From Deltaproteobacteria bacterium (GTDB taxonomy: Bacteria > Desulfobacterota > DSM-4660 > Desulfatiglandales > HGW-15), in the NCBI GenBank assembly GCA_020060805.1, contig JAGUZM010000005.1, positions 1 through 24,452 of the forward strand: 24,452 nt of DNA. The letters are read 5' to 3'. The first letter of the stretch is position 1; each line of letters starts with the position of its first letter. Of the stretch, positions 44 to 24,452 are shown piece by piece. The notes beneath the pieces are model-generated. The model did not search any database. It had not been told where the DNA came from and saw nothing but the letters and a program-made list of their open reading frames with translations. Both the position numbers and the translations under genes were made by a program.

Positions 44-1345
44 TCATTTCATCAAATAGTTAGGAAGAAAAAGAGCGAGCTGAGGAAACAGAAACAGCAG
101 TGCCCCAAAAACGACTATCCCCAGCAAGAACGGAACTACGCCCCTATAGACTGTCGCCATGGGTGTCCTGCTGATTTTGTGAACGATGAACACATTTGAA
201 GCCACCGGCGGTATGACAATACCGATCATTACCGTCATCGCGATGATAATGCCAAACCAGATGGGATCAAACCCCAACTTCTGAACAGCAGGAAAGAAGA
301 CTGGCGTAGCAAGGACCATGAAAGCAAGGTCATCAATAAACGAACCACCGATCAGGTACACCAAGCAGATAATTAAAATAACGACATTCCTATGAACGTG
401 GAGAGTTGTGACCCAATCTGATATAAGCTGAGGAATATTTGTTATGGTAATGAAATGGCCCAGTATTGAAGATCCTGCAATCAGCATAAGGATCATGCAA
501 GCGGTGCGTGTCGCATCTCTAATGGCCTTGACATAGGCTACGAAGGTCAATCTTCCAGTCAGAACTATTAGGAGGAGCACAGTCATTGTCCCCACGCTTC
601 CGGCTTCCGTCGGGGTAAAAAAACCAGTTAAGAGACCGACCAGCATAAGGGCGAATATAGCGAGTACGACTGCAGCTTCAGGTAGTGAGGCAATCCTCTC
701 CTTCCAACTAAACTTTTGACCGGCTGGTGCTACCGAGGGGTTAATTCGGGCCCATCCGTAGATGATGAGAATAAACAAGAGAGCAATCCCAAGACCCGGA
801 ATAATACCAGCCAGAAACAACTTGCCGATCGATTGTTCGGTAATGAGCCCGTAAATGATTAGAAAAATAGTAGGTGGGATAAGACAGCCAAGTGTGCCTA
901 CGATGGCCACGAGTCCCGTTGAAAGCCTTTTGTCATAATGGTAGCGATCCATTTCCGGAATAGCGACACTGCTGAATGTCGCAGCTGTTGCATTTGCCGA
1001 CCCACACAGCGCCTTGAATGCCGCAGCGCCCCCAACTGTCGCCATTGCAAGTCCCCCCGGAATGTGGCCTAAGAATCGGTAGGCTGTGTTATAAAGCCTT
1101 TGTGCCATTCCCGATGCGAAAGCAAGCTGCCCCATGAAGATAAACAGCGGGAAGACTGAATAGCCATACGATACGAAAACGTCGTAGACGTCTTTTGCCA
1201 TCATATGGGTTGCCGCTTCGAAATTAACGAGATAGCTGAACCCTGCGAACCCTACCAGTATCATACAAAAAGGCAGTTCGAGACCAGTGAAAAACAGTAG
1301 GAGGAGGGCAACCAAGGCAAGACATCCAACCATTACCTCATTCAT
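44..1345 (-). CDS. dctM: TRAP transporter large permease subunit (DctM family)
   Basis: 433-aa uninterrupted ORF that is hydrophobic throughout, with length and multi-span character typical of DctM. Its start overlaps the stop of the upstream DctQ-like ORF by 8 nt (ATGAATGA on the minus strand), indicating translational coupling. Confidence 0.9.
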   Translation of the reverse strand: MNEVMVGCLALVALLLLFFTGLELPFCMILVGFAGFSYLVNFEAATHMMAKDVYDVFVSYGYSVFPLFIFMGQLAFASGMAQRLYNTAYRFLGHIPGGLAMATVGGAAAFKALCGSANATAATFSSVAIPEMDRYHYDKRLSTGLVAIVGTLGCLIPPTIFLIIYGLITEQSIGKLFLAGIIPGLGIALLFILIIYGWARINPSVAPAGQKFSWKERIASLPEAAVVLAIFALMLVGLLTGFFTPTEAGSVGTMTVLLLIVLTGRLTFVAYVKAIRDATRTACMILMLIAGSSILGHFITITNIPQLISDWVTTLHVHRNVVILIICLVYLIGGSFIDDLAFMVLATPVFFPAVQKLGFDPIWFGIIIAMTVMIGIVIPPVASNVFIVHKISRTPMATVYRGVVPFLLGIVVFGALLFLFPQLALFLPNYLMK

Positions 1346-1820
1346 GCTCTCCTCCTACAATTCTCACAATGTCGCAGACGAAGACTACCGATAAAACGAA
1401 GAAGCACGCTGCAAGGGCGAAGGAGATGGGGTGGAGCGGAAGTTGAAGAGTGCCTGAGACTTCTCCTCCTTTCCAGAACCCGAAGCCTATTTTCATCGAG
1501 TTCCAGCTGATGAGGATAGATAAAACGATGGCCGCGCATCTCGTAGCGAGATCTACTAGGTTCCTTGTTTTTCGGGGTAGGGCGCTTGTGACGAAATCGA
1601 CGGAAATATGGTCTTTCATCCAAAAGGAAGTGGGAACAGTAAAGCCTATGACGATTCCGCAACAGATTGCAATAATTTCAACGGCACCGGGTATCGGCAT
1701 GCCGAAAGGTCTCATCACTACGTCAAACGTGGTTAGCAGCATGATGAGGGTCAGGAAAACGCCTGCTATAGCATGCATTGCTAGATTGATCCTGGCAAAA
1801 GTCTTGATAAAGACATTCAT
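1338..1820 (-). CDS. dctQ: TRAP transporter small permease subunit (DctQ family)
   Basis: Small hydrophobic four-helix-type protein directly upstream of and overlapping dctM. The track ORF extends to 1895, but the ATG at 1820 (MNVFIKTFARINL...) follows GGAGG at 7-nt spacing and removes an overlap with the upstream gene, so 1820 is the preferred start. Confidence 0.8.
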   Translation of the reverse strand: MNVFIKTFARINLAMHAIAGVFLTLIMLLTTFDVVMRPFGMPIPGAVEIIAICCGIVIGFTVPTSFWMKDHISVDFVTSALPRKTRNLVDLATRCAAIVLSILISWNSMKIGFGFWKGGEVSGTLQLPLHPISFALAACFFVLSVVFVCDIVRIVGGEHE

Positions 1821-1882
1821 AAAGCGTCCTCCGATCCATACGACCATTCCTCCTCGGCCGAGTGTCTCTGAACGTGAGCAAA

Positions 1883-2374
1883 CTACTCCCACCAAACACC
1901 GGTCGTCTTCCAGAATTCCTTGTCCTCCTCTTTCCAGTCCGGCCCAAATGTCTTGTCCATATATGAGCCAAGCCTATTGAACCATCGCCACCAAGGATGC
2001 TTTCCTTTATCTCGCGCCTCCAGTATATCGTTCAATAGAAGCACGATGTCAGACATCTTTTCCATGGGGATGTAGGAGGCTGCACCGTTGTGGAAAGACT
2101 TAAACAGGTTGTCCTTGGTCAGCGCATGGGCAGTGAGCATGACGGGAATAACGTCATGCTTCTTAGCTATTTCGAGGAGCTCGTATCCGTCGACACCCAT
2201 AATGTCCAATATCGCTATGTCGAAGAACTGTGTCTCCAGGAGCTCTTTTGCTTCCATGAAAGAAGATGCCTTTTCGACGTGACACATAGCCAGTAATTCG
2301 GCAAGTGCGCTGAGAACATCAGGCTCATCATCCACAACAAGAATTCTCTTCAACTCCAATAAATCGCGTTGCAA
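1883..2374 (-). CDS. Stand-alone response-regulator receiver (REC) protein with Trp-rich C-terminal tail (paralog 1)
   Basis: REC hallmarks are present: VVDDEPD acidic pocket, phospho-acceptor context AILDIMG, and MLTAH Thr. There is no DNA-binding or enzymatic output domain. The roughly 45-aa tail (HPWWRWFNR...FGPDWKEEDKEF) is conserved with the 15821-16309 protein. TTG start preceded by AAGGAG at 7 nt. Confidence 0.85.
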   Translation of the reverse strand: MQRDLLELKRILVVDDEPDVLSALAELLAMCHVEKASSFMEAKELLETQFFDIAILDIMGVDGYELLEIAKKHDVIPVMLTAHALTKDNLFKSFHNGAASYIPMEKMSDIVLLLNDILEARDKGKHPWWRWFNRLGSYMDKTFGPDWKEEDKEFWKTTGVWWE

Positions 2375-2459
2375 CTTTTTTCTCCTTGTTCAGGTCAGCT
2401 ACTTTGTGGGTGTTTTCTGCGCTGGGTCAAAATACAGTGAAATAAAGGCGATGCATCTA

Positions 2460-4043
2460 CTACGGACGCTCGATAAATCCGACTGAAAACACATTATCTT
2501 GGCTATTGTAGGTTACACATGAATTTTGGCGCCACTTGCCGTCATCTGTTTTTCCGTAATCATAACGGATAAAGGCTCCGCGGCTTTCCTCTCTAAGGAT
2601 ACTTGTCTCAAGAATTGTCTGCAGGGTAAAGATGCCGCTTTTCAAGTCCTCCAGTTTCGCCACGTCACGCGAGTTGCTAGGCACAAGCCCCGAGACCCTG
2701 TTTTGAAGTTCGGAAACTCTCCTTATTCCCTCAGAAAGCCCCTCTTCACTCCTGACAACGCCGGCGTGTTTCCAGGCAATATCTCGCAGCAGCTGCCGTG
2801 CGCTTCTTAAATCAATGCCTTTAGAGGAACTCTTGAAAATGCCCGACTCAACTCTTTCGACGCCATTGGCTGCTATACCATGTTTTGTCGATGCATGCTC
2901 CGCCGCCCCTCGCCCTGCTATGATTCCGGTTACCGCGCACTCAGTCAAAGCGTTCCCCCTCATTCTGTTTGCCCCGTGAAACCCCCAGACTATTTCTCCG
3001 CAAGCAAAAAGACCCCGAAGAGTTGTCTCTCCATTTTCATCTACCTCCACTCCTCCCATAAAGAAATGCGCGGCAGGAGAAACAGGAAATGGGCTCCGGG
3101 CAAGGTCAATTTTCCTTTGTGGCAACAGAGTGAAAGGACGTTTCGAATACAAAGAAGCAGGGACACCCGTGTAATCCAGGGTGACCGGCCCCTGGAGACC
3201 TTCCTCATATAGAACGGCTGAGAAAGAATCCCTTCGACTCTCTATGGCTTCATTGGGATCGCCTATTCGGTGCTTGACAAGAATATCCTCCCCGCTGCTG
3301 TTGAGAATCCGCGCCTCTTTTGGATAAGGGGGATAGACGAGAAGAAATGGTGCGCCTCGTTGGGCAAGAACCAGTGGGTAGAACTGCACGAATTCCATAT
3401 CCCAGAGTCTGAGACCTGCCTTCGCAGCCAGATAGTAGCTCTGCCCCAGCATGTTCCTCTGATTGTCGTTGTGGAGGTAGAGCGCACCGGCACCGCCTGT
3501 TGCCAAGATCACAGCTGGAGCCTGAACTTCTGTCCGGCGGCCACTATTATCATAGCCTGAAACGCCTGATACCGAGCCGTCCCTGCTCATTATCTCCGTC
3601 ACATAGAATCGAGGGACTGATTCAATGCTCGGAGAGTTTTTTAGGTTGCCGGCGAGCCGTTTGACCAATGTGAGACCCCGTATCATATCGTTCGACTCGC
3701 TCTTTACGGCGTAACCTCCACGGAATGCCGCAAATTCCACTCCCCAAGAGGATAGTAGGGAAAAGGCCTCTAGCGCCCGGTCGGCAATCATATTCACTAT
3801 AGATTTTTTATTTAGGCCTTTGCCTGCAAGAAGGGTATCAGCAACATATTCTTCAACGCTGTATGCCTTGGACGGTCCTGCAAAAACTCCATTCGAGATG
3901 GCCGAGTTGGTTCCAAACCCGATACTGCCTCTATCCAGCAGCAGGACACGGGCGCCTTTCCGGGATGCTTCAAGGGCGGCAATCATCCCGGCACATCCGG
4001 CCCCGACAACCACAACGTCCGACCTGACCAATCGAATGGACAT
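2460..4043 (-). CDS. FAD-dependent oxidoreductase of the fumarate reductase / succinate dehydrogenase / L-aspartate oxidase flavoprotein family
   Basis: N-terminal dinucleotide fold VVVVGAGCAGMIAAL...LLLDRG. Family motifs AAHFFMGGVEVDENGETTLRGLFACGE and C-terminal REESRGAFIRYDY. 527 aa. GGAGAG upstream of the ATG. Confidence 0.85.
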   Translation of the reverse strand: MSIRLVRSDVVVVGAGCAGMIAALEASRKGARVLLLDRGSIGFGTNSAISNGVFAGPSKAYSVEEYVADTLLAGKGLNKKSIVNMIADRALEAFSLLSSWGVEFAAFRGGYAVKSESNDMIRGLTLVKRLAGNLKNSPSIESVPRFYVTEIMSRDGSVSGVSGYDNSGRRTEVQAPAVILATGGAGALYLHNDNQRNMLGQSYYLAAKAGLRLWDMEFVQFYPLVLAQRGAPFLLVYPPYPKEARILNSSGEDILVKHRIGDPNEAIESRRDSFSAVLYEEGLQGPVTLDYTGVPASLYSKRPFTLLPQRKIDLARSPFPVSPAAHFFMGGVEVDENGETTLRGLFACGEIVWGFHGANRMRGNALTECAVTGIIAGRGAAEHASTKHGIAANGVERVESGIFKSSSKGIDLRSARQLLRDIAWKHAGVVRSEEGLSEGIRRVSELQNRVSGLVPSNSRDVAKLEDLKSGIFTLQTILETSILREESRGAFIRYDYGKTDDGKWRQNSCVTYNSQDNVFSVGFIERP

Positions 4044-4079
4044 TCTCCGCTCTCCGACTGTGGACTGCAGATTATGGGT

Positions 4080-5384
4080 TCATGAGGCGGTCCTCTTGTC
4101 CACAAACCGCTTTGACTTGTAATCCGATCGCGGAAGCGTATTTAGCGGGACTGCTTCTACAGGAATTCGAATTTCGAAACGTTCCCTTAGCGCCCTCTCC
4201 AGCCGTTTACAGAGTTGGGCCGGGTCGCGGCCTTTGCCGGGCTCGACGCACACCTTTACCTCGCCCATGCCATCTTTGGTATAGGCGATGATCTGGTACT
4301 CTTCTCCAATGAGAAGACAGCTCTCCACCACGTTGCCCAGATCAGAAGGAAAGAGGTTCATTCCCCGGATGATGATCATGTCATCACTTCTGCCGAGAAC
4401 ACCCCCTTCAAGCAGTCTGAAGGTGCGTCCGCACCCGCACTGCGCAGTACTTACTCGGACAAGATCGTGTGTCCGGAAACGTATCCCCGGAGAGGAGGTC
4501 CTGCCGAGATTGGTCAGGACCATCTCTCCCATATTTCCATCCTCCAAAGGCTCGCCGGTAGTTGGGTCAATCACCTCAAGGATGAATTCCGTCTCGTTGA
4601 CATGAATAGCGGTTCGTTGATGTTCGCAGTGAAGGGCGTAGGCGCCTACTTCGGTCAGACCGGGGTAATCGTAAGGAGTAGCCCCCCACGCCTCGGAGAT
4701 CTTCTTCTGAATCGAAGGAACGAGCCCTCCGGGTTCACCGGCATGGATCAGCAAGCGTACCGAACTCTTACTTAAATCTATGTTATTGTCCGCAGCGGCC
4801 TCTGCCATGCGCAAGGCATAAGTGGGCGTGCAGCAGACTACCGTTGCTTGGTTTTCTATGAGGCTCCTCAACCTTTGCACGGTATTCCAACCGCCACCTG
4901 CTATGGCAAGCGCGCCAATTTGAAAAGTCCCTTCGAAGAGACCCCAAAACGCCACGTGTGGACCAAAAGCAAACGGAAAAAAGACAACATCGGAGGGCCG
5001 CACACCCGAGGCCCACAGTGACATGGCAGCGCACTTGCCACGCCACTCCCAACTCTCTCTGGTATCCATCCATTTCAGGGGCAATCCAGTCGTCCCTGTC
5101 GTCTGATGATATCGGACATAATTCTCCAGGGGCTCAGAAAGGTTTGTTCCGAATGGCGGATTCTCCGTCTGATCCTTCTGGAAATCCCGCTTGTAGGTGA
5201 ATGGAAGCATCCTCAAGTCTTCGAGTGAGCGAACTCGTTCAGGATTGATTCCGCATTCCTCGTACTTCCGTCTGTAGAATGGGTTGCCACTCACCTTCCG
5301 CAGCAAACCCAGCAGCTTTTGTTCCTGGAGAGCACGGATCTCCCCACGTGAGGCCGCTTCGAAGGGGGTGAAGTTGGAACGCAT
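4080..5384 (-). CDS. Phenylacetate-CoA ligase (PaaK) / coenzyme F390 synthetase-family aryl-acid CoA ligase
   Basis: PaaK-type N-terminus (SRGEIRALQEQKLLGLLRKV), P-loop YHQTTGTTGLPLK, and C-terminal LPRSDYKSKRFVDKR. The track ORF reaches 5417, but the ATG at 5384 (MRSNFTPFEAAS) follows AGGAGG at 6 nt and avoids overlapping the upstream ORF. Confidence 0.85.
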   Translation of the reverse strand: MRSNFTPFEAASRGEIRALQEQKLLGLLRKVSGNPFYRRKYEECGINPERVRSLEDLRMLPFTYKRDFQKDQTENPPFGTNLSEPLENYVRYHQTTGTTGLPLKWMDTRESWEWRGKCAAMSLWASGVRPSDVVFFPFAFGPHVAFWGLFEGTFQIGALAIAGGGWNTVQRLRSLIENQATVVCCTPTYALRMAEAAADNNIDLSKSSVRLLIHAGEPGGLVPSIQKKISEAWGATPYDYPGLTEVGAYALHCEHQRTAIHVNETEFILEVIDPTTGEPLEDGNMGEMVLTNLGRTSSPGIRFRTHDLVRVSTAQCGCGRTFRLLEGGVLGRSDDMIIIRGMNLFPSDLGNVVESCLLIGEEYQIIAYTKDGMGEVKVCVEPGKGRDPAQLCKRLERALRERFEIRIPVEAVPLNTLPRSDYKSKRFVDKRTAS

Positions 5385-5404
5385 TGTCTTCCTCCTGCCA
5401 ATTG

Positions 5405-5725: not shown

Positions 5726-5728
5726 CTC

Positions 5729-7165
5729 CTATTTGAAACCGTAATTCTTCCAATTATCGAGTACCTTTTGTTGAATCTGCTGACCATAGATCCCCTTGAA
5801 ACACGATTTTATTGGAACGAGTTCCTTGTTCCAATCCGGCGGCCAGGTAGCGTCGAAAATCACCGAACACCCCTTGAGCGCGGCTCTTTCCTTGAGATTA
5901 TACATGGGCGTGAGGGAATTGGCTCTTCCTTCGTACCATTCGTAATGGATACCTCGTCCCGGGTGACAAACGGTTGCAAATGCGTGCAATACCTCATTCA
6001 TATTAAAGACGTCCACATCGGGCCCAACCATGATGTGTTTATTGGTCATGACACGACGCGCGCAAAAATATTCCAATACCTTTTTCGCAATTTCCGGCCC
6101 GCCCTCCTCGACACCAACTACGATGAGGTGGGTGACTCCTTCGGGGGGAACATAGACGTCGGTGACCGGAAGACCCCTTCGCAACAGCCCCTTTTTCATG
6201 GAGACGGCGGCAGTCAGTGAAGCGGCGATGTTGCTGTCGTCCGGGGGAGTCCCCAGCGCGATCATTGTGAGGATCGGATCGTTGCGGTGGGTTATAGCCG
6301 TGACCTTCACAGCGATTCCCTCGCACATGGTGCCGCTCCGAAACCCGGGATATTCGCCGAAAGGTCCATCCGGCGCAACCTTGTCAGGCTGCATTTCCGC
6401 TTCAATCACGATCTCTGCATTTGCTGGCACCATGAGATCAGAGGTCTCGCATTTGACTAATTCTACGGAAGCGCCCCCTAGTCCCCCCGAAAACTCCGCC
6501 TCGTTTTCCTGGAGAGGAATCGGCGCTGTGGCCATCAGGTGAGACACCGGGTCGGCCCCTAGTACAATGGCTACAGGCATTGGCTTGTTCTGGGGGAGGT
6601 ATCTTTCCTTGAAGATCTTGGCAAACTGGCTGGTGGTCTGGGGCCAACCCGTCAACCAGTTCTTGTTGTGAATCATAAAGCGATACATTCCCCAGTTGGT
6701 CCAGTTGGTCACAGGATCCTTGCAGATGATGATGTCCCAAGTACCTATGTACCGTCCGCCATCGCCTTCATGGATCATCGGCGCAGGAAATTTGTTCAGG
6801 TTGATATCGTCTCCCATCATAATATTTTGCTTGCAGGGAGCAGAGCGCTTCTCCAAGATCGTCGGCGGAATTTTACTGCCCAGCTTCACATCATAAGTGC
6901 GATAGATCTCACGTACGGAGGCGTTCCGAGGTAAACCCAAAGCCATGGCAACCCTCGGCCAAGTGCCAGAGGTGCCGTTAGAAATTGTATACCCCTTGGG
7001 GTAATCCTTGATGTTTTCGAACAGAAGACATGGCCCATACTGCTCATAGTTGCGGCGTCCGATAGCCCCGACCTCAATATCCCAGTCCACCTGTTTGGAT
7101 ATCCTGAGCAGGTCCCCTTCCTTCTCCAGAGCTTTGAAAAACTCCCTATGGTCTTTATATGGCAT
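5729..7165 (-). CDS. UbiD-family prFMN-dependent (de)carboxylase (paralog 1)
   Basis: 478 aa. UbiD-type N-terminus (HREFFKALEKEGDLLRISKQVDWDIEVGAI) and the canonical loop DGPFGEYPGF. AGGAGGG RBS. Confidence 0.9.
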   Translation of the reverse strand: MPYKDHREFFKALEKEGDLLRISKQVDWDIEVGAIGRRNYEQYGPCLLFENIKDYPKGYTISNGTSGTWPRVAMALGLPRNASVREIYRTYDVKLGSKIPPTILEKRSAPCKQNIMMGDDINLNKFPAPMIHEGDGGRYIGTWDIIICKDPVTNWTNWGMYRFMIHNKNWLTGWPQTTSQFAKIFKERYLPQNKPMPVAIVLGADPVSHLMATAPIPLQENEAEFSGGLGGASVELVKCETSDLMVPANAEIVIEAEMQPDKVAPDGPFGEYPGFRSGTMCEGIAVKVTAITHRNDPILTMIALGTPPDDSNIAASLTAAVSMKKGLLRRGLPVTDVYVPPEGVTHLIVVGVEEGGPEIAKKVLEYFCARRVMTNKHIMVGPDVDVFNMNEVLHAFATVCHPGRGIHYEWYEGRANSLTPMYNLKERAALKGCSVIFDATWPPDWNKELVPIKSCFKGIYGQQIQQKVLDNWKNYGFK

Positions 7166-7223
7166 TTTTATTTAACCCTCCTTGAAATGATCTCACGTTC
7201 ACCTTATTCGTTATGGCTCTTCA

Positions 7224-7238
7224 GCAAGGAGTGTGCCA
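7224..7238 (-). promoter_or_regulatory. Sigma-54 (-24/-12) promoter of the module A operon
   Basis: The minus strand reads TGGCAC-ACTCC-TTGC, an exact match to the TGGCAC-N5-TTGC consensus. It lies about 60 nt upstream of the UbiD ATG at 7165, and a sigma-54 activator gene is divergent from it. Confidence 0.75.
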
Positions 7239-7434
7239 GATAACCATTAAGCTATCCCGTCTGCATCATTTGCCGCCGATGGAAAACGAAGCGAGCGCGA
7301 TTCAAAAAGAGCAGGGGCAAGCGCAGCCACGTTTTCCTGATTTTTTGACAGGAGAGCTTGAATAGAGACATGCGTTCTATGAAGCCGTTCATTGTTTCTC
7401 TTGACACTAAATGCATTGATGGTATCCTCGATTG

Positions 7435-7457
7435 TGTCCAGCAAGTGGACATGTCCA
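7435..7457. promoter_or_regulatory. Composite palindromic operator / putative activator-binding site (site A)
   Basis: The plus strand reads TGTCCA-GCAAG-TGGACATGTCCA; the reverse complement is TGGACATGTCCA-CTTGC-TGGACA. This is a 12-bp perfect palindrome plus a third half-site. The site is 197 bp upstream of the sigma-54 promoter and about 20-30 nt upstream of the activator start codon. The same architecture recurs at 12137-12159 and 22944-22966. Confidence 0.5.
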
Positions 7458-7475
7458 AGCACAACTTTTCCGAGG

Positions 7476-11921: not shown

Positions 11922-11999
11922 GGTCGTGCTCCTTTCCAGTTTAAGGTGAAAACCTATCTCCCCGGGATTCGGTCTTCCTCAGATCTTCGCTTGAACAAA

Positions 12000-14523: not shown

Positions 14524-14625
14524 AAATTTCGGAATCTCCGCTTGCTTTTTCAATCCGAGGCTTAATTCAGCTGCATTTCTTCGAGGCAATCATGAGCACG
14601 GTGCGGCTCCGTTCTACATGTATAA

Positions 14626-16359: not shown

Positions 16360-18249
16360 CTAGCTCTTGCTTTCTACCGGATACGAGCTGCCCCTAGACA
16401 TCCGTGAACGGATATTCCGCCATAACAGAATGGCTGCTATGGTCAACAGCCCGAGCATGTTCAATACTATGTTATGAGGGATAAGGCAAATGCTTGCGCA
16501 TAGGACGAGAAGCCTTTCAGGCAGCGTCAGCTTGGAAGTGGCGAAACCCAGGAACGACATGGATATTCCACCGATGGCGACGAACGCAGTGAAAATGCGG
16601 TAAATTACATAAACGACAGATCCCTTCAGCATGATCTCCGGCGAATAGACGAAGAGAAAGGGCACGATGAAAGTCGGCGCAGAAATCAGGAATGCCAGAT
16701 TGGTAGTTTTCAGAGGATCTGTCCTGGCAATACCCGCTGCCGCAAAGGAGCACGGTGCTGAAGGGGGGGTGATGTTGCCGAGAACCCCGAAGTGGAAAAT
16801 GAACAAGTGCGCTGCCATGGGATGTATCCCACTCTGAACGAGTGCAGGCGCGGCAAGGATTGCCAGGATGAGATAAGCCGTCACGGGGGGCAGAGGCAGC
16901 CCGATAATTACCGAGGCGACCATGGTCAGGAGGAGCAGGACGATTTTGTTCCCTCCTGCTACATAAAGCAGTATCTCTGTAAAGCGGAGTCCCAGCCCTG
17001 TGAGATTGATCACTCCCTCGATGATTCCGGCCGCTGCGCACGACATAATCACGATCAATGCCGTTTTCGGGCCGTTTTCAAGGGCCAGGATCAACTTTGA
17101 GAAGGACATCCTTGTCGCCTTTCGGAGTAGGCTGATGGCGAGCAGTGCAATGATTGCCCAAAACCCGGCCTTCTTGGTGCTCACATTCTCGACAATCAGC
17201 AGGTAGAAGATGACCAGGAGCGGAAAAAAGAGATGACCATACTGGCTCAGCAGTGAACGGATCTTCGGCAGTTCAGATTTGGGCGCCTTTACGAGCCCGA
17301 GTTTCTTGCCCTGGATCTGTATGAACGTGAATACGGTCATGTAGAAAAGGAGGCCGGGTACCAGTGCGGCGCGCATGACGTCCAGGTAGCTTCCGCCGAT
17401 GATCTCAGGGATGATGAAGGCCGCTGCCCCCATCACAGGGGGAACCAACATTCCCCCTGTTGAAGAAAGCGCCTCAATGGCTGCGGCCATTATGGGCTTG
17501 TATCCTGAGCGGATCATAAGGGGAATGGTCAAGGTGCCTACAGCCGCAACGTTTGCCGTCTGGCTTCCAGTCATCATGCCGAAAAGGCAGCTCCCCAGGA
17601 CGGCTGCTTTAGCGGCCCCGCCCCTGAACCTCCCAAAAATGCCGTAGCCAATGTTCGTAAAGGCGTGAGTACCACCCGTCTGTTCGAGGAAGGCACCAAA
17701 AATGAGGAAAATGATGATCACGGTCGCGGACACGCTCAAAGCAACCCCCAATATTCCCTCGGTGCTGAGGAACATGTGCGAAACCACCCTCTCGAACGAA
17801 TACCCGCTGTGAGCGAACATGGAAGGCAAGTACTTTCCGAACGCTACATAGGCAAGGCTCAACAAAACCAAAACGCACATGGTGAGCCCCATGATGCGAC
17901 GCGTCGCCTCTGTGACGAGCACGATCGCCGTTGTTCCCACAATGCAATCCAAAATGTTCGGCGAGCCCTCCCTTGATGCGATGTTCTCATACTCCAGCAG
18001 AACATAAAGGGAGATGAATGCACTCAAAAAAACCAGAACGTAGTCTATCGCCAAGGCGGTACCAGTGTGTCTGCTACGGAATGTTTTCTGCAGGGGCAAG
18101 AGAAGGAATACCAGGATGAGCCCGAACCCGAGATGGATAGATCTCTGCTGCATTGCAGGAAGCTGCTGTATCCCAGCAGTGTAGATCTGGAATAAAGACA
18201 TCGCGATTGCAATGATCCCTATGACCCTTTTTGAAGTAATCCATCTCAT
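16360..18249 (-). CDS. TAXI-type TRAP transporter fused permease, copy 2
   Basis: 629-aa polytopic membrane protein paralogous to 8925-10841. GGAG RBS at 6 nt. Confidence 0.9.
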   Translation of the reverse strand: MRWITSKRVIGIIAIAMSLFQIYTAGIQQLPAMQQRSIHLGFGLILVFLLLPLQKTFRSRHTGTALAIDYVLVFLSAFISLYVLLEYENIASREGSPNILDCIVGTTAIVLVTEATRRIMGLTMCVLVLLSLAYVAFGKYLPSMFAHSGYSFERVVSHMFLSTEGILGVALSVSATVIIIFLIFGAFLEQTGGTHAFTNIGYGIFGRFRGGAAKAAVLGSCLFGMMTGSQTANVAAVGTLTIPLMIRSGYKPIMAAAIEALSSTGGMLVPPVMGAAAFIIPEIIGGSYLDVMRAALVPGLLFYMTVFTFIQIQGKKLGLVKAPKSELPKIRSLLSQYGHLFFPLLVIFYLLIVENVSTKKAGFWAIIALLAISLLRKATRMSFSKLILALENGPKTALIVIMSCAAAGIIEGVINLTGLGLRFTEILLYVAGGNKIVLLLLTMVASVIIGLPLPPVTAYLILAILAAPALVQSGIHPMAAHLFIFHFGVLGNITPPSAPCSFAAAGIARTDPLKTTNLAFLISAPTFIVPFLFVYSPEIMLKGSVVYVIYRIFTAFVAIGGISMSFLGFATSKLTLPERLLVLCASICLIPHNIVLNMLGLLTIAAILLWRNIRSRMSRGSSYPVESKS

Positions 18250-18485: not shown

Positions 18486-19451
18486 CTACTTGAAAATACC
18501 GGCTTCTTTGAAGTACTTTTCAGCCCCTTTGTGAAATGGGAAGGCGATGGTGCGTTTTACGCTTTGAGGGTTCATCTCGTTCGCAACCGGGTGGATCTCA
18601 ATCAGCTCTTTTCTGTTTTCAAAAAGCGCTTTGGTCATTTTGTAAACGAGATCCTCCTTCACCCCTTCGTGGGTTTCGAGCGGCACGCCGAATACGAGAA
18701 TTGGCGTAGGCTGATCGACGCCGCTGTAAGATCCCGGTTTCAGAGTGTCATGATAGAGATATGGGTTTTCCGGCAGGATCTTCTTCAGCACTTCCTCGTT
18801 GGCTGGGATCACACGGATTTCCTTTCGAATGCTGAGTTCCTTCATGGCCGGAATCGGGTATGCGCCGGAGATAAACCCAGCATCGATGCTCTCGTCCTGC
18901 AAGCCCTCGACCACCTCCTTGTAGCCTAGCCACAGTTGCTTGTACATGTCTTTGGTGACTCCGTGGGCCGTGATCAAATCCAGAGCTAACTGTGATGTTC
19001 CGCTACCGGCCGCACCAAGGGCCACCCTCTTGCCCTTCAGATCGGCAATGGTCTTTATGGAGGAATTCTTGAGCACTACCAGGTTCATCCCCGCGCCGTA
19101 TAGAAAGGTGATGGCCCGGAGTCCATCGTAAGCCTTTTCAAATGGCGGCTTTCCTGCATAAGCCAAATAGAGAAGCTTCGAGTCACTTATCCCAAAGGCG
19201 GCCTGCCCCTTTGATTGTTTCTCGTCGAGATACTTGATCGTGGCGGAAGACCCGCCTGTCCCTTCCACCATCATCTGCACTTCGGGTACGTGTTTGTTCA
19301 GGACCTTGGCAATCGCTCCTCCAAGAAAGTAGGCTGTTCCTCCAGAGCCCGGCGTGTAAATGGGAATGACCTCTTTTGCAATGGAAACTGGAGTTTGACA
19401 AAGAACCGCCATCCCAAAAACTGCCATAAGGACCATTTCAAACTTTTTCAT
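18486..19451 (-). CDS. TAXI-family TRAP solute-binding protein, copy 2
   Basis: Canonical TAXI N-terminal region IYTPGSGGTAYFLGGAIAKVLNKHVPEVQMMVEGTGGSSATIKYL. Signal peptide MKKFEMVLMAVFGMAVLCQTPVSIA. The ATG at 19451 follows AGGGGGG; the track ORF (to 19493) would overlap the ligase gene. Confidence 0.85.
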   Translation of the reverse strand: MKKFEMVLMAVFGMAVLCQTPVSIAKEVIPIYTPGSGGTAYFLGGAIAKVLNKHVPEVQMMVEGTGGSSATIKYLDEKQSKGQAAFGISDSKLLYLAYAGKPPFEKAYDGLRAITFLYGAGMNLVVLKNSSIKTIADLKGKRVALGAAGSGTSQLALDLITAHGVTKDMYKQLWLGYKEVVEGLQDESIDAGFISGAYPIPAMKELSIRKEIRVIPANEEVLKKILPENPYLYHDTLKPGSYSGVDQPTPILVFGVPLETHEGVKEDLVYKMTKALFENRKELIEIHPVANEMNPQSVKRTIAFPFHKGAEKYFKEAGIFK

Positions 19452-19485
19452 AAAGCCCCCCTTTCTCTTAACGGGTTCGTTGCAA

Positions 19486-21057
19486 TCAAACATACTTGCG
19501 CCTCATCTCCTTCTTCTCCAGTTTGCCGGTCGGATTCCTCAGTACTTCATCGAAGATGATGCGCCTCGGTCTCTTGTATCTCGCAATTTTTCTTTCAAAA
19601 AAGGCGGTCAACTCTTTCTTCGTTTCACTTGAATCAGGGATATTCGACTTGAGTTTAATTACCGCCGTGACCATCTCACCTAGCCTGTCATCGGGGAGCC
19701 CTATTACAGCCACATCGTGAACTTTGGGATGAGTTTGTATCAGCTCTTCGACTTCAGTGGGGTACACGTTCTCGCCCCCACAGATAATCACGTCCTTTTT
19801 CCTATCGACGATCCAATAAAACCCCTCCGAATCCCTTCTCGCCAAGTCGCCGGTATATAGCCAGCCGTCCCTTATCGTTCTTGCGGTCAGTTCCGGATTT
19901 TTGTAATACTCTTTCATGACGCCGTTCCCTCGGACAACGATTTCTCCGACATCTCCCCGCCGTGTATCGTTGCCGGAATCATCCACCAGTTTCACCTCCC
20001 AGTTGAATCCCGGCTTGCCGATCGAGCCCACTTTGTGCTCGTTCTCGATCCCGAGGTGAAGACATTGAGGCCCAGTTCCCTCAGTGAGCCCATAGTTCTC
20101 ATCAAAGATCATGTTAGGGAATTCCTTTTTCCACCTCGTGATCAGACTCGGCGGAACCGGTTGCGCGCCGAGCAAAAGGAGTCGCCATTCACTCAAATCG
20201 TAATCTGATTTCTTCAGTGTCCCCGCTTCCAGTTCCCCCAGTATGTCCTGGATCCATGGAACGAGGAGCATGCAAACAGATCCTCGCTCCTCCGATAGAA
20301 CCCGAAAAATCGCTTCCGGAGTAATTTTGTCTCCCTGTATTATGGCCGATTCACCCATGATGAGACTGGAAAGCCAGTGAATAAAATCCCCGGTGTGGTA
20401 GAGAGGCTTCAGAATCACGAATATGTCGCCGCTCCTTCGAAGCTGATGTACCACCTCGATGATCGCAGCGTGCTCCATGTTGTTGTGGCTGAGCAGAATG
20501 GGTTTCGGCTTCCCTGTAGTTCCCGATGTGAAATAGAGACCGCAGGGGTCACTAGGCTCAAGGCGTGTAAAAAATGGTTCCGGGGAGGATCCAGCCATAA
20601 TCGCGGGGAGACATTCCATGCCCCTTGCGGCACTCGGCCCGTTGACGAATATGACGAAATCACGTTTCTTCTCGAGTTCCGCCTCGATTACTCTGGGGGC
20701 GAATTTCTCGTCGAGGATCATTGCCGCCGGTTCGGCTACGTCCATGCAGTGGCGGAAATCATCCGATGTGAACCGAAAGTTGAGAGGAACGACAACTGCG
20801 CCTGTACGAATGATCCCAAAGTACGCCGCCACCCAGGAGATGGAATTCATCATCCAATGAATCACCTTATCTCCCTTCCTTACGCCTCTTCCTGTGAGGG
20901 AGTTGGCGATCCTGTTGACCATCTCATTCAACTCTCTCCAGGTGACCTCAACTCGCAGGTTTTTACTCGGCAGCCGTTCAACGAGGGCGATCTTGTCAGA
21001 ATGCATCCTCGCGTTCCTTGCCAGCATTTCTGAGATATCCATGACGCCTATTACCAT
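19486..21057 (-). CDS. AMP-forming acyl/aryl-CoA ligase (classical ANL adenylate-forming superfamily)
   Basis: AMP-binding signature YFTSGTTGKPKPILLSH, then GYGLTE-like NYGLTEGTG, and WLYTGDLARRDSEGFYWIVDRKKDVIICGGENVYPTEVE. The start could be 21057 or 21042 (MDISEMLARNA); neither has an ideal RBS. Confidence 0.85.
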   Translation of the reverse strand: MVIGVMDISEMLARNARMHSDKIALVERLPSKNLRVEVTWRELNEMVNRIANSLTGRGVRKGDKVIHWMMNSISWVAAYFGIIRTGAVVVPLNFRFTSDDFRHCMDVAEPAAMILDEKFAPRVIEAELEKKRDFVIFVNGPSAARGMECLPAIMAGSSPEPFFTRLEPSDPCGLYFTSGTTGKPKPILLSHNNMEHAAIIEVVHQLRRSGDIFVILKPLYHTGDFIHWLSSLIMGESAIIQGDKITPEAIFRVLSEERGSVCMLLVPWIQDILGELEAGTLKKSDYDLSEWRLLLLGAQPVPPSLITRWKKEFPNMIFDENYGLTEGTGPQCLHLGIENEHKVGSIGKPGFNWEVKLVDDSGNDTRRGDVGEIVVRGNGVMKEYYKNPELTARTIRDGWLYTGDLARRDSEGFYWIVDRKKDVIICGGENVYPTEVEELIQTHPKVHDVAVIGLPDDRLGEMVTAVIKLKSNIPDSSETKKELTAFFERKIARYKRPRRIIFDEVLRNPTGKLEKKEMRRKYV

Positions 21058-21173: not shown

Positions 21174-22691
21174 CTACCTTCCCGTTTTGGCGAGCGACCG
21201 AGCATATTCGGTCTGCATGCCACGAAAATCGGCAAGCTGCTTCTCGGAGAACCATTTTTTCAGGTCAACTTTGTCCACAGGATAATGGGGTCGAGTGAAG
21301 TAGTGCGCGGTCTTGAAGGGCTTTGTTGCGTCGAATGCCATCCCGCCTTCCCATCCGCCAAGGCCACTCTGCCTGACTTCTTTTGGCTGGGCTGCTATGC
21401 CGCGCCCCCCGCGTGGAAGCTTAATAATATCTTTGTCGGGGTCGACACGGCTCTCCAGAGCCCACATCACGTCGTCGGCATTGTAGATGTCTACATCCTC
21501 GTCAACGGCAATCGCCATCCTGATACCAGGCGCATCCGCAAGCGCCGAAAAGAGAATGTTCCTCTGAAATCCTTCCTCCTGCGATCGCTCCTTGCGCACC
21601 TGGAAAATGACTCCACTCCCCCACTTGAAGTAATCGGGGATGTTGACATCCACACATATGCCCGGGGCAATCCTTTCTGCCATCTCGAAAAACGTTGCCT
21701 CCCTGAGCAGATCGAAACACGCGTATTCCAGCCCTGCCGCAAGGGGGGTGTAGAAGATGGGACGTTCCTTCCTCATGGTGACAGCGGTGACTTGGAGTTT
21801 ACGCACCTTCCATGTGGTGCCCATATATCCTACCCATTCCGGGAAAAAATTAGTCTCCCCCTGGCGCTGCACTCCCAGTTTTTCTGCTTCTTCGCTTTCC
21901 CACACATTCTGGGAGGTCGGCTCTAGATAACCTTCCAGCACTATCTCGGCATCCGCGATGGCATACGCATCAACGGTCCTCGCTTTCACCAGTTTGACCG
22001 GCGCCCCCTGAAATCCACCGGCGATTCCCAGTTCATCGCTTCCGTGAGGCACGATCGTTCTCACGTTCCAGGTGCCCGCCACGATGCCGACTGCAGGGCT
22101 GGGGTTCATATTCACGGTTATTGGAATCCTCTCGTCACGATGGGTCTTGAAGGCCATCATCCCAATGTGAGTGATTTGGGCAGTTGATATCGAAGCCCAG
22201 TCTTTACCCCTGAAATGAATCCGATTGAATGAGATGTTCGTATCGCCTTTTCTGTAGACATCGCACAGGAGCTGATTTCCGCACCCGATGATCCTGCCGG
22301 CATCGAATTCCGTGTGTTTGATGATCGGAAGCATTGTTGGTACATCGATGTCCTTGGTGATTACCACTTCCTGGCAAGGCGCGTCTTTCACTATCTGGGG
22401 AGGTATCGGCTCTCTCAACGCCTCCACAAACTTGAATTTAAGCTTGTTCGGGTCGCTCACTCCGTAGAGGTCGGCAATCGGTTCTCGCCTTCCGAAAATA
22501 TTGCCGAGGTCGCGAAAACCGGGGTATCCCTTTATTTTGTCGAAAAGGAGTATAGGTCCCTTCTCCAACGCCTTTTGAATCCCGGCGATTTCGTAGATCG
22601 GATCTACCTCTTCCTTCACATGGACCACCTGGCCTTTCTTATCCAGGTAAGCCAACGCCCCTCTTATGGACGTCACATCTCTTTTTTCCAT
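21174..22691 (-). CDS. UbiD-family (de)carboxylase, divergent paralog 2
   Basis: UbiD-like N-terminus (IRGALAYLDKKGQVVHVKEEVDPIYEIAGI) and overall length. The canonical GPFGE loop is replaced by ETNFFPEWVGYMG. The start is set at Met17 of the track ORF (ATG 22691), which follows AGGAGG at 5 nt. Confidence 0.85.
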   Translation of the reverse strand: MEKRDVTSIRGALAYLDKKGQVVHVKEEVDPIYEIAGIQKALEKGPILLFDKIKGYPGFRDLGNIFGRREPIADLYGVSDPNKLKFKFVEALREPIPPQIVKDAPCQEVVITKDIDVPTMLPIIKHTEFDAGRIIGCGNQLLCDVYRKGDTNISFNRIHFRGKDWASISTAQITHIGMMAFKTHRDERIPITVNMNPSPAVGIVAGTWNVRTIVPHGSDELGIAGGFQGAPVKLVKARTVDAYAIADAEIVLEGYLEPTSQNVWESEEAEKLGVQRQGETNFFPEWVGYMGTTWKVRKLQVTAVTMRKERPIFYTPLAAGLEYACFDLLREATFFEMAERIAPGICVDVNIPDYFKWGSGVIFQVRKERSQEEGFQRNILFSALADAPGIRMAIAVDEDVDIYNADDVMWALESRVDPDKDIIKLPRGGRGIAAQPKEVRQSGLGGWEGGMAFDATKPFKTAHYFTRPHYPVDKVDLKKWFSEKQLADFRGMQTEYARSLAKTGR

Positions 22692-22775
22692 TCTTCCCTC
22701 CTGATGATCGCAATTTCTTTGTTGGCTCAGTTCACTCAAAGTTGTCTACGCTCGATTTCTTATAACTGCCTATTA

Positions 22776-22790
22776 GCAAAGAACGTGCCT
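22776..22790 (-). promoter_or_regulatory. Sigma-54 (-24/-12) promoter of the module B operon
   Basis: The minus strand reads AGGCAC-GTTCT-TTGC with correct GG/GC spacing, about 85 nt upstream of the ATG at 22691. A sigma-54 activator gene is divergent from it. Confidence 0.65.
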
Positions 22791-22943
22791 CAATCTACTT
22801 GCCTGATTTTACACTATAAAATAAATGTACAACCAAAAAAAGTCTGCATATCCTCTCAAAGATGTCCATTTTGCAGACATCGTTCTAGATAATATCTTCT
22901 GATTCTATGAACTTACTCAAATATTGAGATCATGACCTAAAAA

Positions 22944-22966
22944 GAGACATGTCTTTTTGCTGGACA
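22944..22966. promoter_or_regulatory. Composite operator / putative activator-binding site (site C)
   Basis: GAGACATGTCTT-TTTGC-TGGACA matches the reverse complement of site A at 18 of 23 positions. Shared parts are the GACATGTC core, the TTGC spacer end and the TGGACA half-site. A partial inverted copy, TGTCCA-TTTTGCA-GACAT, lies at 22863-22880. Confidence 0.45.
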
Positions 22967-23027
22967 ACCTCATTCATCTGAACCATATTGGGGCAAGAAG
23001 ATTAGATTTTTGCTTTTGGAGCCGCGC

Positions 23028-24452
23028 ATGGATGAGTCCAGTTTTATGGCAATTATAAAAGAAGCGTTGGGTAGCTACCCTTTGAGCCCGGCGATTGCAC
23101 ATGCAATTAGATTTATGTTCATGAATAACTACGAAAGCATGGCAATCATTAATGATCATGGTGAAATCGAGTTCTTGGATCGGCTCTCTGAAAAGGCTTT
23201 CGGGGCTCCGCACGGGACCGCAAGAGGAAGACAGGCCAGAGAGATCATCCCCACTTCTGGACTTCCCGATGTACTTCAAACGGGTAAGCCCCACATAGGC
23301 AAGATTTTTAACGTTAAAGGAAGGCAAAGGATCGTCTCCAGATTCCCCGTATTTTGGGACGGACGGCCGGTTTCCGTTTTTGGCCGTGTCCTCTTGGCTT
23401 CTCTCGAAGAACTCGAAAGGGTACGGCACGAATCACAGAGGCTCAGAAACAAAGTCATCACTGTTCAGGAAAAAATACTCGGTGAACATCAGGCCACTTA
23501 TGTATTCGACAATATCCTCGGCACAAGCGGAAAAATACAGCAAACCAAGTTCCTCGCCATGAAAATGGCTGATAGTGATGCCGACATTCTCATTTATGGA
23601 GAAAGTGGCACGGGAAAAGAGTTGTTCGCTCATGCCATACACAACCAGAGCAGGCGTTCCACAAAGCCCTTTGTGAAAGTCAATTGTCCTGCTATCCCGA
23701 TTGAATTGGCAGAGTCGGAGCTCTTTGGGTATGAGAAAGGCGCCTTTACCGGAGCGAGAAAGGGAGGCAAGCTAGGTAAATTTGAAATAGCTCAAGGGGG
23801 CACAATATTCCTGGACGAAATAGGATCTCTGCCTATATCAATTCAATCTAAACTGCTCCGAGTTATCCAGGAACGAGAAATTGAGAGGCTTGGAAGCCAA
23901 AAGTTGATAAGGCTGAACATACGAGTAATAGCTGCAAGCAACATCGATCTAAGGGCACTTGTCGATCAAGCCAAATTCCGTGACGACCTCCTTTACCGTC
24001 TTTCAAAAGCGGTTTTGAAACTCCCGCCGCTTAGAGAGAGACCTGAGGATATTCCCACTTATATAAGCAACTACATGAAAGTAATTGGGAGAAATAAAGG
24101 GATTTCAAATGAGGTTCTGGTACATCTCATTAAATACTTCTGGCCTGGGAATGTCCGTGAGCTTATAAACACATTGGAACAATCGAATTTCCGAGCATCC
24201 CCAAATGAGGAAATCCGACCAGCCCATCTCCCAGAGGAGGTTAGGGCGGCCGATCGTTCTTCTGTTGAAGATAATTCTTCCCCGGAAGGTTCTCTGAGAT
24301 CAAGGATTGAGGAAACAGAAAAGAAATGTATCGCTAATGCCCTTCGGATAACCAAAAGGAATAAGAGAAAAGCAGCCCAATATCTGGGTATTCAGCGGTC
24401 CCTTCTCTATAATAAAATGAAGAAATACGATCTCGACAAAGACGTTCTATAA
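23028..24452 (+). CDS. Sigma-54-dependent transcriptional activator (PAS-like sensor, AAA+, Fis-type HTH), paralog 2
   Basis: GESGTGKELFAHAIH, ELFGYEKGAFTGA (canonical GAFTGA), GTIFLDEI, and HTH RNKRKAAQYLGIQRSLLYNKM. The ATG at 23028 follows GGAG at 6 nt, whereas the track ORF starts at a TTG at 23010. The stop codon is the last triplet of the window. Confidence 0.9.
   Translation: MDESSFMAIIKEALGSYPLSPAIAHAIRFMFMNNYESMAIINDHGEIEFLDRLSEKAFGAPHGTARGRQAREIIPTSGLPDVLQTGKPHIGKIFNVKGRQRIVSRFPVFWDGRPVSVFGRVLLASLEELERVRHESQRLRNKVITVQEKILGEHQATYVFDNILGTSGKIQQTKFLAMKMADSDADILIYGESGTGKELFAHAIHNQSRRSTKPFVKVNCPAIPIELAESELFGYEKGAFTGARKGGKLGKFEIAQGGTIFLDEIGSLPISIQSKLLRVIQEREIERLGSQKLIRLNIRVIAASNIDLRALVDQAKFRDDLLYRLSKAVLKLPPLRERPEDIPTYISNYMKVIGRNKGISNEVLVHLIKYFWPGNVRELINTLEQSNFRASPNEEIRPAHLPEEVRAADRSSVEDNSSPEGSLRSRIEETEKKCIANALRITKRNKRKAAQYLGIQRSLLYNKMKKYDLDKDVL

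Follow-up and report, generated by a model that had tools for sequence, protein, structure and literature searches.

Two ligase and UbiD-type decarboxylase modules in a putative catabolic island for phthalate isomers of a Desulfobacteraceae-like anaerobe

Phthalate isomers are high-volume plastic chemicals whose anaerobic breakdown is known from few organisms; the enzymes acting on isophthalate are known from one syntrophic bacterium only, and no anaerobic pathway for terephthalate is known (PMC13040137). In the syntrophic fermenter Syntrophorhabdus aromaticivorans UI, the isophthalate:CoA ligase (IPCL, SynarDRAFT_0375) acts on isophthalate and is inactive on benzoate, phthalate and terephthalate, with isophthalyl-CoA as the reported substrate of the decarboxylase (PMC9516798). 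Because IPCL is inactive on benzoate, CoA ligation precedes decarboxylation in this characterised system, whose gene cluster, including the small gene SynarDRAFT_0374, is induced by isophthalate (PMC9516798). For o-phthalate, the denitrifiers Thauera chlorobenzoica and Aromatoleum aromaticum EbN1 (plasmid 2: UbiX, phthaloyl-CoA decarboxylase (PCD), SptAB and a TAXI-type tripartite ATP-independent periplasmic (TRAP) transporter) employ a type III succinyl-CoA:phthalate CoA transferase; the sulfate reducer Desulfosarcina cetonica is described as having an ATP-dependent phthalate ligase (PCL) and a PCD (Geiger et al. 2019, as cited in PMC13040137 and PMC9516798). The PCDs of Deltaproteobacteria group in a clade of their own, apart from the beta/gamma PCDs (PMC8269228). 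Here we compare with these systems a stretch of 24,452 nt from a Deltaproteobacteria bacterium (assembly GCA_020060805.1, contig JAGUZM010000005.1, positions 1-24,452; the window is this whole stretch), which carries two operons, modules A and B, each encoding a CoA ligase, a UbiD-family protein and TRAP transporter components, and between them a single gene for UbiX, the source of prenylated flavin mononucleotide (prFMN).

Genes were checked with an open reading frame (ORF) listing and with Pfam and NCBIfam profile searches over the 19 window proteins, start codons were refined by ribosome-binding sites and homologue lengths, and the comparison set consisted of 94 fetched loci (L-numbers). 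Every gene named in a first-pass annotation, made from the sequence alone, was recovered in its place by the listing and the profiles. We consider it probable that the window represents a catabolic island under sigma-54 control in a Desulfobacteraceae-like anaerobe, in which module A is of the isophthalate type and module B follows a phthalate-type logic; both modules would then lead from aromatic dicarboxylates to benzoyl-CoA. The genes of module A (minus strand, 7165 to 44) stand in the order UbiD-A, small protein, PaaK-type ligase, flavoprotein, REC-only protein, DctQ and DctM, and those of module B, also on the minus strand (22691 to 13534), in the order UbiD-B, ANL ligase, TAXI protein, fused permease, REC-only protein, old yellow enzyme (OYE) homologue and Amidohydro_2 protein. 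The first-pass annotation had taken the two for parallel systems and not a recent duplication, and this view stands: identity between the modules is 25% for the UbiDs, 23% for the ligases, 48% for the activators and 56% for the REC proteins, and the 23-25% found for the catalytic pairs rules out recent duplication as the origin of the two modules, which by this measure reflect parallel recruitment. Its general logic of uptake, CoA ligation and UbiD-type aryl-CoA decarboxylation, with prFMN from UbiX, likewise fits both modules.

Module A and the isophthalate cluster of Syntrophorhabdus

The core of module A consists of three genes.
5729..7165, minus strand: UbiD-A, an isophthaloyl-CoA-decarboxylase-type UbiD of 478 aa, with a DGPFGE catalytic loop
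5405..5716, minus strand: small protein of the SynarDRAFT_0374 / phenylphosphate-carboxylase gamma family, 103 aa from an ATG preceded by a Shine-Dalgarno sequence; alternative start 5725
4080..5384, minus strand: PaaK-type aryl-acid:CoA ligase, orthologue-like of IPCL, 434 aa; alternative start 5417

The cloning primers for SynarDRAFT_0374 and SynarDRAFT_0375 come from the isophthalate:CoA ligase paper (PMC9516798), and one of these primer sequences found the S. aromaticivorans UI locus (L004), together with a near-identical Syntrophorhabdus metagenome-assembled genome (MAG) from a terephthalate-wastewater reactor. The 8-kb L004 locus encodes, in order, a UbiD (C-terminal part), the 104-aa SynarDRAFT_0374, IPCL, a BenE transporter and UbiX, such that the order UbiD, small protein, PaaK-type ligase is common to module A and L004. 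The module A ligase is 57% identical to IPCL over 425 aa, the small protein 55% identical to SynarDRAFT_0374, and UbiD-A 72% identical to the UbiD upstream of SynarDRAFT_0374 in a comparison confined to 148 C-terminal residues. A PaaK-like isophthalate:CoA ligase of Syntrophorhabdus, named in the first-pass annotation, is indeed the closest characterised relative of the module A ligase. Two IPCL residues proposed from a homology model to bind the second carboxylate, His146 and Tyr252 (PMC9516798), are kept in the window ligase (within FGPHVA and VGAYALH) and in the ligase of L008; a second ligase subgroup, seen in L009 and L001, has Tyr and Trp at these positions. By homology and gene order, module A is a further example of the characterised isophthalate ligase/decarboxylase system.

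The likeness is not complete. Where S. aromaticivorans UI has BenE for uptake, the window has TRAP/TAXI components; the module A operon adds a divergent FrdA/NadB-like flavoprotein and a REC-only protein; and the window carries a sigma-54 activator, whereas no regulator is visible in the 8-kb S. aromaticivorans UI locus. The hosts also differ, that of the window being Desulfobacteraceae-like and S. aromaticivorans a syntrophic fermenter.

Homologues of UbiD-A are numerous at 60-78% identity, with hosts that by source annotation include Desulfobacterales, Syntrophorhabdaceae, Pelotomaculum (from a terephthalate reactor), Chloroflexi and Bathyarchaeia MAGs. The core triplet of UbiD, small protein and ligase was seen again in L008, L009, L010 and L011. 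In L008 it is accompanied by a sigma-54 activator, UbiX and TAXI-TRAP, in L009 by a GntR regulator and TAXI-TRAP, and in L010 and L011 the surroundings are nearly those of the window; L011, from the Desulfobacteraceae MAG GCA_003599615.1, has 92% DNA identity over window positions 3-12272. The isophthalate-type cassette is thus widespread and modular, its hosts being Desulfobacterota, Syntrophorhabdaceae and Pelotomaculum, with Chloroflexi and Bathyarchaeia MAGs as further hosts by annotation.

A variant arrangement is found in the Syntrophorhabdaceae loci L001-L003 (in L001 at approximately 10001-16481), where a UbiD and a small protein are 93% and 79% identical to the S. aromaticivorans pair. 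This pair, resembling isophthaloyl-CoA decarboxylase (IPCD), is not adjacent to an IPCL-type ligase. The PaaK-type ligase nearby is 44% identical to IPCL, has Tyr/Trp at the His146/Tyr252 positions, and is coupled to a further UbiD, of 488 aa, as well as to DctQMP and a long OYE; this second ligase-UbiD set may serve a different isomer.

Published work on SynarDRAFT_0374 reported no similarity and no ligase-related activity for this protein (PMC9516798). The window homologue scores 28.2 bits on PF09662 (phenylphosphate carboxylase gamma; gathering score 25), a model matched by all seven of the family members tested, SynarDRAFT_0374 included (best E 1e-9), while reaching 30 bits on TIGR02725 against a cut-off of 135; a PDB profile search found no solved relative of the family. 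The best NCBIfam model for UbiD-A is in turn phenyl_P_alpha (TIGR02723), at 376.3 bits and below the 564.6 cut-off. Because of the PF09662 membership of the small protein and the best score of UbiD-A on the alpha model, we regard the small protein as a putative decarboxylase small subunit, which suggests that the isophthalate-type decarboxylase, that of the window included, is a UbiD with a gamma-type small subunit and would give SynarDRAFT_0374 a likely role. The first-pass annotation had listed a 106-aa protein at this position as being outside the described pathways; the gene is there, but as a homologue of SynarDRAFT_0374 its product, of 103 or 106 aa depending on the start, is by sequence part of the described isophthalate cluster. 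The same profile result bears on a refuting sign that the annotation had named, namely clustering of the UbiDs with the phenylphosphate type. That sign proved unusable, since UbiD-A itself scores best on the phenylphosphate-carboxylase alpha model and such affinity seems inherent in the isophthalate-cluster UbiD lineage (approximately 72% identical to UbiD-A in the available part).

The single contig of L009 (16168-19402) has, besides its module-A-type cassette, another two UbiD genes and another PF09662 small protein. UbiDs with gamma-type small subunits can accordingly be present as several paralogues in one genome. Among other UbiD families, UbiD-A matches Fdc1/PA0254 at about 240 bits. Membership of either UbiD in the VdcBCD/BsdBCD hydroxyarylic acid decarboxylases was ruled out, UbiD-A scoring 252.5 and UbiD-B 219 bits on the VdcC model NF041204 against a cut-off of 650.

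We hypothesize that in module A the acid would be imported by a TRAP system, most likely the TAXI system encoded between the two modules (the middle system, below), with DctQM(P) perhaps bringing in a related precursor. The IPCL-like PaaK-type ligase would form the mono-CoA thioester, and UbiD-A in concert with the gamma-like small subunit, as a two-component prFMN enzyme, would then strip the free carboxyl group to yield benzoyl-CoA.

Module B and the weighing of alternative readings

Module B would proceed along the same lines but with components unrelated to those of module A, namely a TAXI-TRAP importer of its own, a ligase of the ANL type and a PCD-like UbiD.
21174..22691, minus strand: UbiD-B, a phthaloyl-CoA-decarboxylase-like UbiD of 505 aa
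19486..21057, minus strand: ANL-superfamily acyl/aryl-CoA ligase (PF00501 and PF13193)
18486..19493, minus strand: TAXI solute-binding protein of module B (TIGR02122, 236 bits)
16360..18249, minus strand: fused TRAP permease of module B (TIGR02123, 591 bits)

The start of UbiD-B at 22691, as first annotated, is preceded by a Shine-Dalgarno sequence and gives a length that fits the 505-aa homologues. UbiD-B matches PCD (PDB 8pmk/8oz5) over its full length at 346 bits (E 1e-102 over residues 23-521), the next PDB family being protocatechuate decarboxylase at 173 bits. It shares with PCD a C-terminal tail, SLA(K/R)TGR (SLAKTGR in UbiD-B), and an (F/H)PEW-x-GYMG loop (FPEWVGYMG in UbiD-B, FHPEWAGYMG in PCD) in place of the EGPFGE of canonical UbiDs. 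In sequence, UbiD-B is 39% identical to the T. chlorobenzoica PCD and 40% identical to that of EbN1. The PCD family is tight, its best 120 relatives all being at least 75% identical and bona fide PCDs 74-85% identical among themselves (PMC8269228), which places UbiD-B, at 39-40%, outside it. The phthalate logic first proposed for module B is upheld in that the closest characterised relative of UbiD-B is a phthaloyl-CoA decarboxylase.

The relatives of UbiD-B itself are 62-90% identical and include proteins annotated as coming from Syntrophorhabdaceae and from Syntrophorhabdus sp. PtaU1.Bin058; a look-up of cluster membership for named isolates among them returned only MAG names. The P0124 cluster, at 85% identity to UbiD-B, holds a protein of Syntrophorhabdus from a terephthalate-wastewater reactor. 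A family-alignment scan of metagenomes yielded 80 loci, among which homologues of the module B ligase (48-71% identity) adjoin genes of the UbiD-B subclade only. In a neighbour-joining tree this ligase-linked subclade, hosted by uncultured Desulfobacterota and Syntrophorhabdaceae, is separated both from the proteobacterial PCDs that are linked to a CoA transferase and from numerous further PCD-like clades. A four-gene core of UbiD, ligase, TAXI protein and permease recurs in L006, L007, L013, L014, L015, L037 and others. The module-B-type loci L006, L007 and L013 are GntR-regulated; that of L014 is MarR-regulated, its operon including genes for a short OYE (59% identity) and for an Amidohydro_2 protein; and L015 adjoins a transposase fragment, encodes TAXI, permease and REC proteins 92%, 91% and 81% identical to those of the window, and also has Amidohydro_2 and UbiX genes. 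A distinct ligase-linked PCD-like clade is thereby delimited, and its substrate is now directly testable. The subclade with its recurrent FeS-OYE and amidohydrolase partners is a modest new point, as is the gamma-type small subunit of module A.

Outside this subclade, the metagenome loci L041-L093 represent a large radiation of PCD-like UbiDs, 42-55% identical to UbiD-B and 32-39% to PCD, which lack a module-B-type ligase and mostly have no type III CoA transferase nearby.

Compared with the denitrifier PCD systems, module B has a TAXI-TRAP transporter and UbiX nearby, and a UbiD homologous over its full length with the tail and loop in common; the two differ in activation, for which the denitrifiers have the type III CoA transferase and module B an ANL ligase. 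The ligase reached the cut-off of no NCBIfam model, and a Pfam search of the window found no CoA_transf_3 gene, the ANL ligase standing in its place. The FeS-OYE, amidohydrolase_2 and REC genes of module B are extra to the denitrifier set. With D. cetonica, at the level of described design, module B shares an arrangement in which a PCD-type UbiD has a ligase gene as its neighbour, UbiX and an uptake system being encoded as well. o-Phthalate is the leading candidate for the substrate of module B, though not an established one.

Several observations weigh against reading the window as an isophthalate-type and a phthalate-type module. UbiD-A scores best on the alpha model of phenylphosphate carboxylase, and its comparison with IPCD is limited to 148 aa. 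UbiD-B is only 39-40% identical to proven PCDs, themselves at least 74-75% identical, and identity between the TAXI protein of module B and the one for o-phthalate in EbN1 is only 27%. The UbiD-B-type gene of L012 has PrpD, mutase and CoA-transferase genes as neighbours, a hint of non-aromatic substrates, and the FeS-OYE and amidohydrolase_2, found also in L014 and L015, are not required for a simple conversion of phthalate to benzoyl-CoA. Finally, past ubiX, L011 has HU and TerB genes and no module B.

Much of this bears on an alternative in which module B encodes a pathway not yet described, its substrate being a dicarboxylate other than o-phthalate: terephthalate, a hydroxy- or hetero-aromatic acid, or an unsaturated aliphatic di- or tricarboxylate. 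The FeS-OYE would then reduce, and the ACMSD-like amidohydrolase_2 decarboxylate or hydrolyse, an intermediate formed by the ligase and UbiD-B. The placement of UbiD-B in its own ligase-linked subclade (39% to PCD), a TAXI protein that is not orthologous to that of EbN1, the accessory genes in the L014 operon (FeS-OYE and Amidohydro_2) and with the L015 cassette (Amidohydro_2, REC and UbiX), and the aliphatic-looking context of L012 are all consistent with it, as are the terephthalate-reactor Syntrophorhabdus protein in the P0124 cluster and the fact that no anaerobic terephthalate pathway has been elucidated (PMC13040137). Yet PCD is by far the closest characterised enzyme, with the C-terminal tail and PEW loop in common; a phthalate ligase, ATP-dependent, alongside a PCD is the known design in the related D. 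cetonica (PMC13040137); and most module-B-type loci (L006, L007, L013) have neither OYE nor amidohydrolase_2. We regard the alternative as possible but doubtful. A broader proposition is held just as tentatively: that module B with FeS-OYE and amidohydrolase_2 makes up an undescribed non-o-phthalate route (the missing terephthalate route, or one for hydroxy- or hetero-aromatic dicarboxylates), and that, separately, isophthaloyl-CoA decarboxylase is heteromeric with a gamma-type subunit.

It seems unlikely that the UbiDs of both modules act instead on free acids, converting a phthalate isomer to benzoate that the ligases then activate as a monocarboxylate. UbiD-A does resemble (de)carboxylases of free substrates (376 bits on phenyl_P_alpha, about 240 bits to Fdc1/PA0254), and in L001-L003 the IPCD-like UbiD and small protein occur away from an IPCL-type ligase. 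Against this, IPCL accepts isophthalate and not benzoate, and isophthalyl-CoA is the reported decarboxylase substrate (PMC9516798). The window ligase moreover keeps both polar residues proposed for the second carboxylate. The nearest characterised relative of UbiD-B also uses a CoA ester.

Module A also invites comparison with phenylphosphate carboxylase (PpcABCD), with which it shares the best alpha-model match and a PF09662 gamma small subunit, and the proposed benzene carboxylase cluster is likewise laid out as small subunit, UbiD, CoA ligase and UbiX. Among the 19 window proteins, Pfam and NCBIfam detected no beta UbiD subunit, HAD-type delta phosphatase or phenylphosphate synthase; the window has a CoA ligase and carboxylate importers in place of these partners, and phenylphosphate carboxylase proper was ruled out by their absence together with the alpha score (376.3 vs 564.6). 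That module A encodes instead a phenylphosphate-, benzene- or naphthalene-type carboxylase, acting on a non-acid aromatic whose product the ligase then activates, is very improbable given the sub-cut-off alpha score, the missing beta, phosphatase and synthase partners, two carboxylate-type TRAP importers in and beside the operon, and an orthologous S. aromaticivorans cluster that is isophthalate-induced with an isophthalate-specific ligase (PMC9516798).

Pairing of the modules, uptake and promoters

Cofactor, uptake and regulatory elements, and one intergenic insertion, lie within, between and around the two modules.
12883..13470, plus strand: UbiX flavin prenyltransferase (prFMN synthase; NF004685, 267.6 bits, above the cut-off of 188)
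8925..10841, minus strand: fused TRAP permease of the middle TAXI system (TIGR02123, 640 bits)
10893..11921, minus strand: TAXI solute-binding protein of the middle system (TIGR02122, 140 bits)
1338..1820, minus strand: DctQ small TRAP permease (PF04290, E 3e-22)
44..1345, minus strand: DctM large TRAP permease, the last module A gene inside the window (PF06808, E 3e-87; TIGR00786, 290 bits, above its cut-off)
7392..8912, plus strand: sigma-54 activator A with sensor, AAA+ and HTH_8 regions (PF00158, E 4e-65); probable true start near 7476
23010..24452, plus strand: sigma-54 activator B (PF00158, E 8e-66; HTH_8)
7223..7238, minus strand: sigma-54 -24/-12 promoter of the module A operon, TGGCACACTCCTTGCT, a perfect consensus match
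11999..12014, minus strand: sigma-54-type promoter of the middle TAXI-TRAP genes, TGGCAAGTATTTTGCT, one mismatch, 78 nt before the start codon
12672..12687, plus strand: sigma-54-type promoter of ubiX, AGGCATGGTCTTTGCT, one mismatch, approximately 195 nt upstream of ubiX
22775..22790, minus strand: sigma-54-type promoter of the module B operon, AGGCACGTTCTTTGCT, one mismatch, 84 nt upstream of the UbiD-B start
12336..12630, no strand assigned: repeat-rich intergenic insertion of 27-nt units with a 36-nt imperfect hairpin

UbiX, encoded 64 bp from the end of the module B operon, shares 58% identity with its counterpart in the S. aromaticivorans cluster. L011 retains this gene (84% nucleotide and 89% protein identity), and ubiX is ancestrally linked to module A. 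Since L011 has no module B at that position, module B is an accessory cassette in this genome, and the pairing of the modules, and any sharing of ubiX, is specific to it; transposase-flanked cassette copies elsewhere (L015, L008) fit this view. The first reading of the window had a single ubiX serving both modules. One UbiX gene is all that the window has, and it plausibly would supply prFMN to both UbiDs; that it is shared is nonetheless our deduction, given that the 92% relative has module A and ubiX without module B there.

The middle TAXI binding protein and fused permease had been passed over in the first reading, which assigned TRAP uptake module by module. The permease is 59% identical to one adjoining the module-A-type cassette of L008, and the binding protein 62% identical to TAXI proteins adjoining UbiD-A-type cassettes in L008 and L009, on account of which the middle TAXI system is the best candidate importer for the module A substrate; elsewhere it is this system, and not DctQM, to which module-A-type cassettes are most consistently linked. 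The DctQ start at 1820 has a Shine-Dalgarno sequence and matches a 160-aa gene call in L010. For module B, the permease is 74% identical to that of L006 and 91% to that of L015, and the TAXI protein 64-92% identical to those of module-B-type loci; orthology of the latter with the EbN1 o-phthalate TAXI protein was considered and is unsupported at 27% identity.

Both activators are transcribed divergently from their operons. They had been described as PAS-AAA+-HTH proteins, of which the AAA+ and HTH_8 parts are clear in both, but the PAS match is sub-threshold in A (E 0.004) and undetected in B. Activator A is 55% identical to the activator of L008, and homologues of activator B (48-58%) adjoin UbiD-B-type genes in L026, L028, L029, L037 and L048. 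A search for the pattern TGGYAY-N5-TTGCW (consensus TGGCAC-N5-TTGCW) gave 7 matches in the window vs 2.4 expected, of which the 4 listed above fall between genes and in the right orientation. Among related loci, UbiD-A-type genes have the motif upstream only if the locus also encodes a sigma-54 activator, and GntR- and MarR-regulated versions of the cassettes lack it. The four -24/-12 promoters are presumably driven by the two paralogous activators, whose pairing with particular promoters we infer. Palindromes resembling GACATGTC, considered as a common activator-binding site, were not significantly enriched (16 matches vs 9.9 expected).

The insertion at 12336-12630 lies between the middle TAXI and ubiX promoters and contains three copies, direct and inverted, of the 27-nt unit TCAACTTTGA-N6-CGTAAAAAGTC. 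It is absent in the 92% relative and in all 94 fetched loci, and may be a small element of the miniature inverted-repeat transposable (MITE) or repetitive extragenic palindromic (REP) kind. No RNA family matched the window in an Rfam scan at gathering thresholds.

Accessory genes of the two operons

The remaining genes of the two operons, which stand outside the steps of the preferred reading, encode redox, hydrolase-fold and signalling proteins.
2460..4043, minus strand: divergent flavoprotein of the FrdA/NadB superfamily (FAD_binding_2 and Succ_DH_flav_C)
1883..2374, minus strand: REC-only response-regulator protein A with a Trp-rich C-terminal tail (PF00072, E 2e-11)
15821..16309, minus strand: REC-only response-regulator protein B (PF00072, E 2e-11)
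14626..15759, minus strand: short OYE flavoenzyme with a 4Fe-4S motif, 377 aa (PF00724, E 4e-60)
13534..14589, minus strand: Amidohydro_2 protein of the ACMSD/LigW-like metal-dependent decarboxylase subfamily (PF04909, E 1e-35)

The flavoprotein scores 251 bits on the nadB model, below the cut-off of 453. It keeps the equivalents of NadB R290, H351 and R386, has Tyr in place of H244, and lacks the TE..RGEG and AADxTG motifs; the sub-cut-off scores and these absences rule out a genuine NadB or FrdA. Only the window and the 92% relative have the flavoprotein gene as part of the operon.

The 4Fe-4S motif of the OYE (C353-x2-C356-x2-C359-x11-C371) is accompanied by no FAD/NAD(P)H domain, and it is a homologue of this protein, 59% identical, that lies within the module-B-type operon of L014. 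The solved neighbours of the Amidohydro_2 protein in the PDB include ACMSD, 5-carboxyvanillate decarboxylase (LigW) and gamma-resorcylate decarboxylase, and its homologues occur in L008, L011, L014 and L015, those of the module-A-type loci L008 and L011 being 45-49% identical paralogues. The LigW substrate, 5-carboxyvanillate, is a hydroxy-methoxy-isophthalate. That the Amidohydro_2 protein might decarboxylate hydroxylated phthalate-type acids is a reasonable guess only.

Each operon encodes one REC-only protein, both with intact phospho-acceptor residues (REC protein A has the acidic pocket, Asp57, and the Thr and Lys residues) and with a Trp-rich C-terminal tail of approximately 45 aa. Homologues occur in L015, where the gene is in the same position and 81% identical to REC protein B, and in L035/L036 (47%). 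No histidine kinase gene was found in the window, and the sigma-54 activators lack REC domains. Paired sigma-54 activators with operon-encoded REC-only proteins make up a testable regulatory scheme.

In L010/L011 (17168-21437) the module A operon runs on past the position of the window's left edge with DctP, short-chain dehydrogenase/reductase (SDR), Amidohydro_2 and aldehyde:ferredoxin-oxidoreductase-family (AOR) genes, and in L013 (16053-21518) an SDR-AOR-DctPQM set follows the module-B-type cassette. This suggests a shared pool of accessory genes for both cassette types, and it is tempting to speculate that the pool feeds alcohol or aldehyde precursors into the dicarboxylates.

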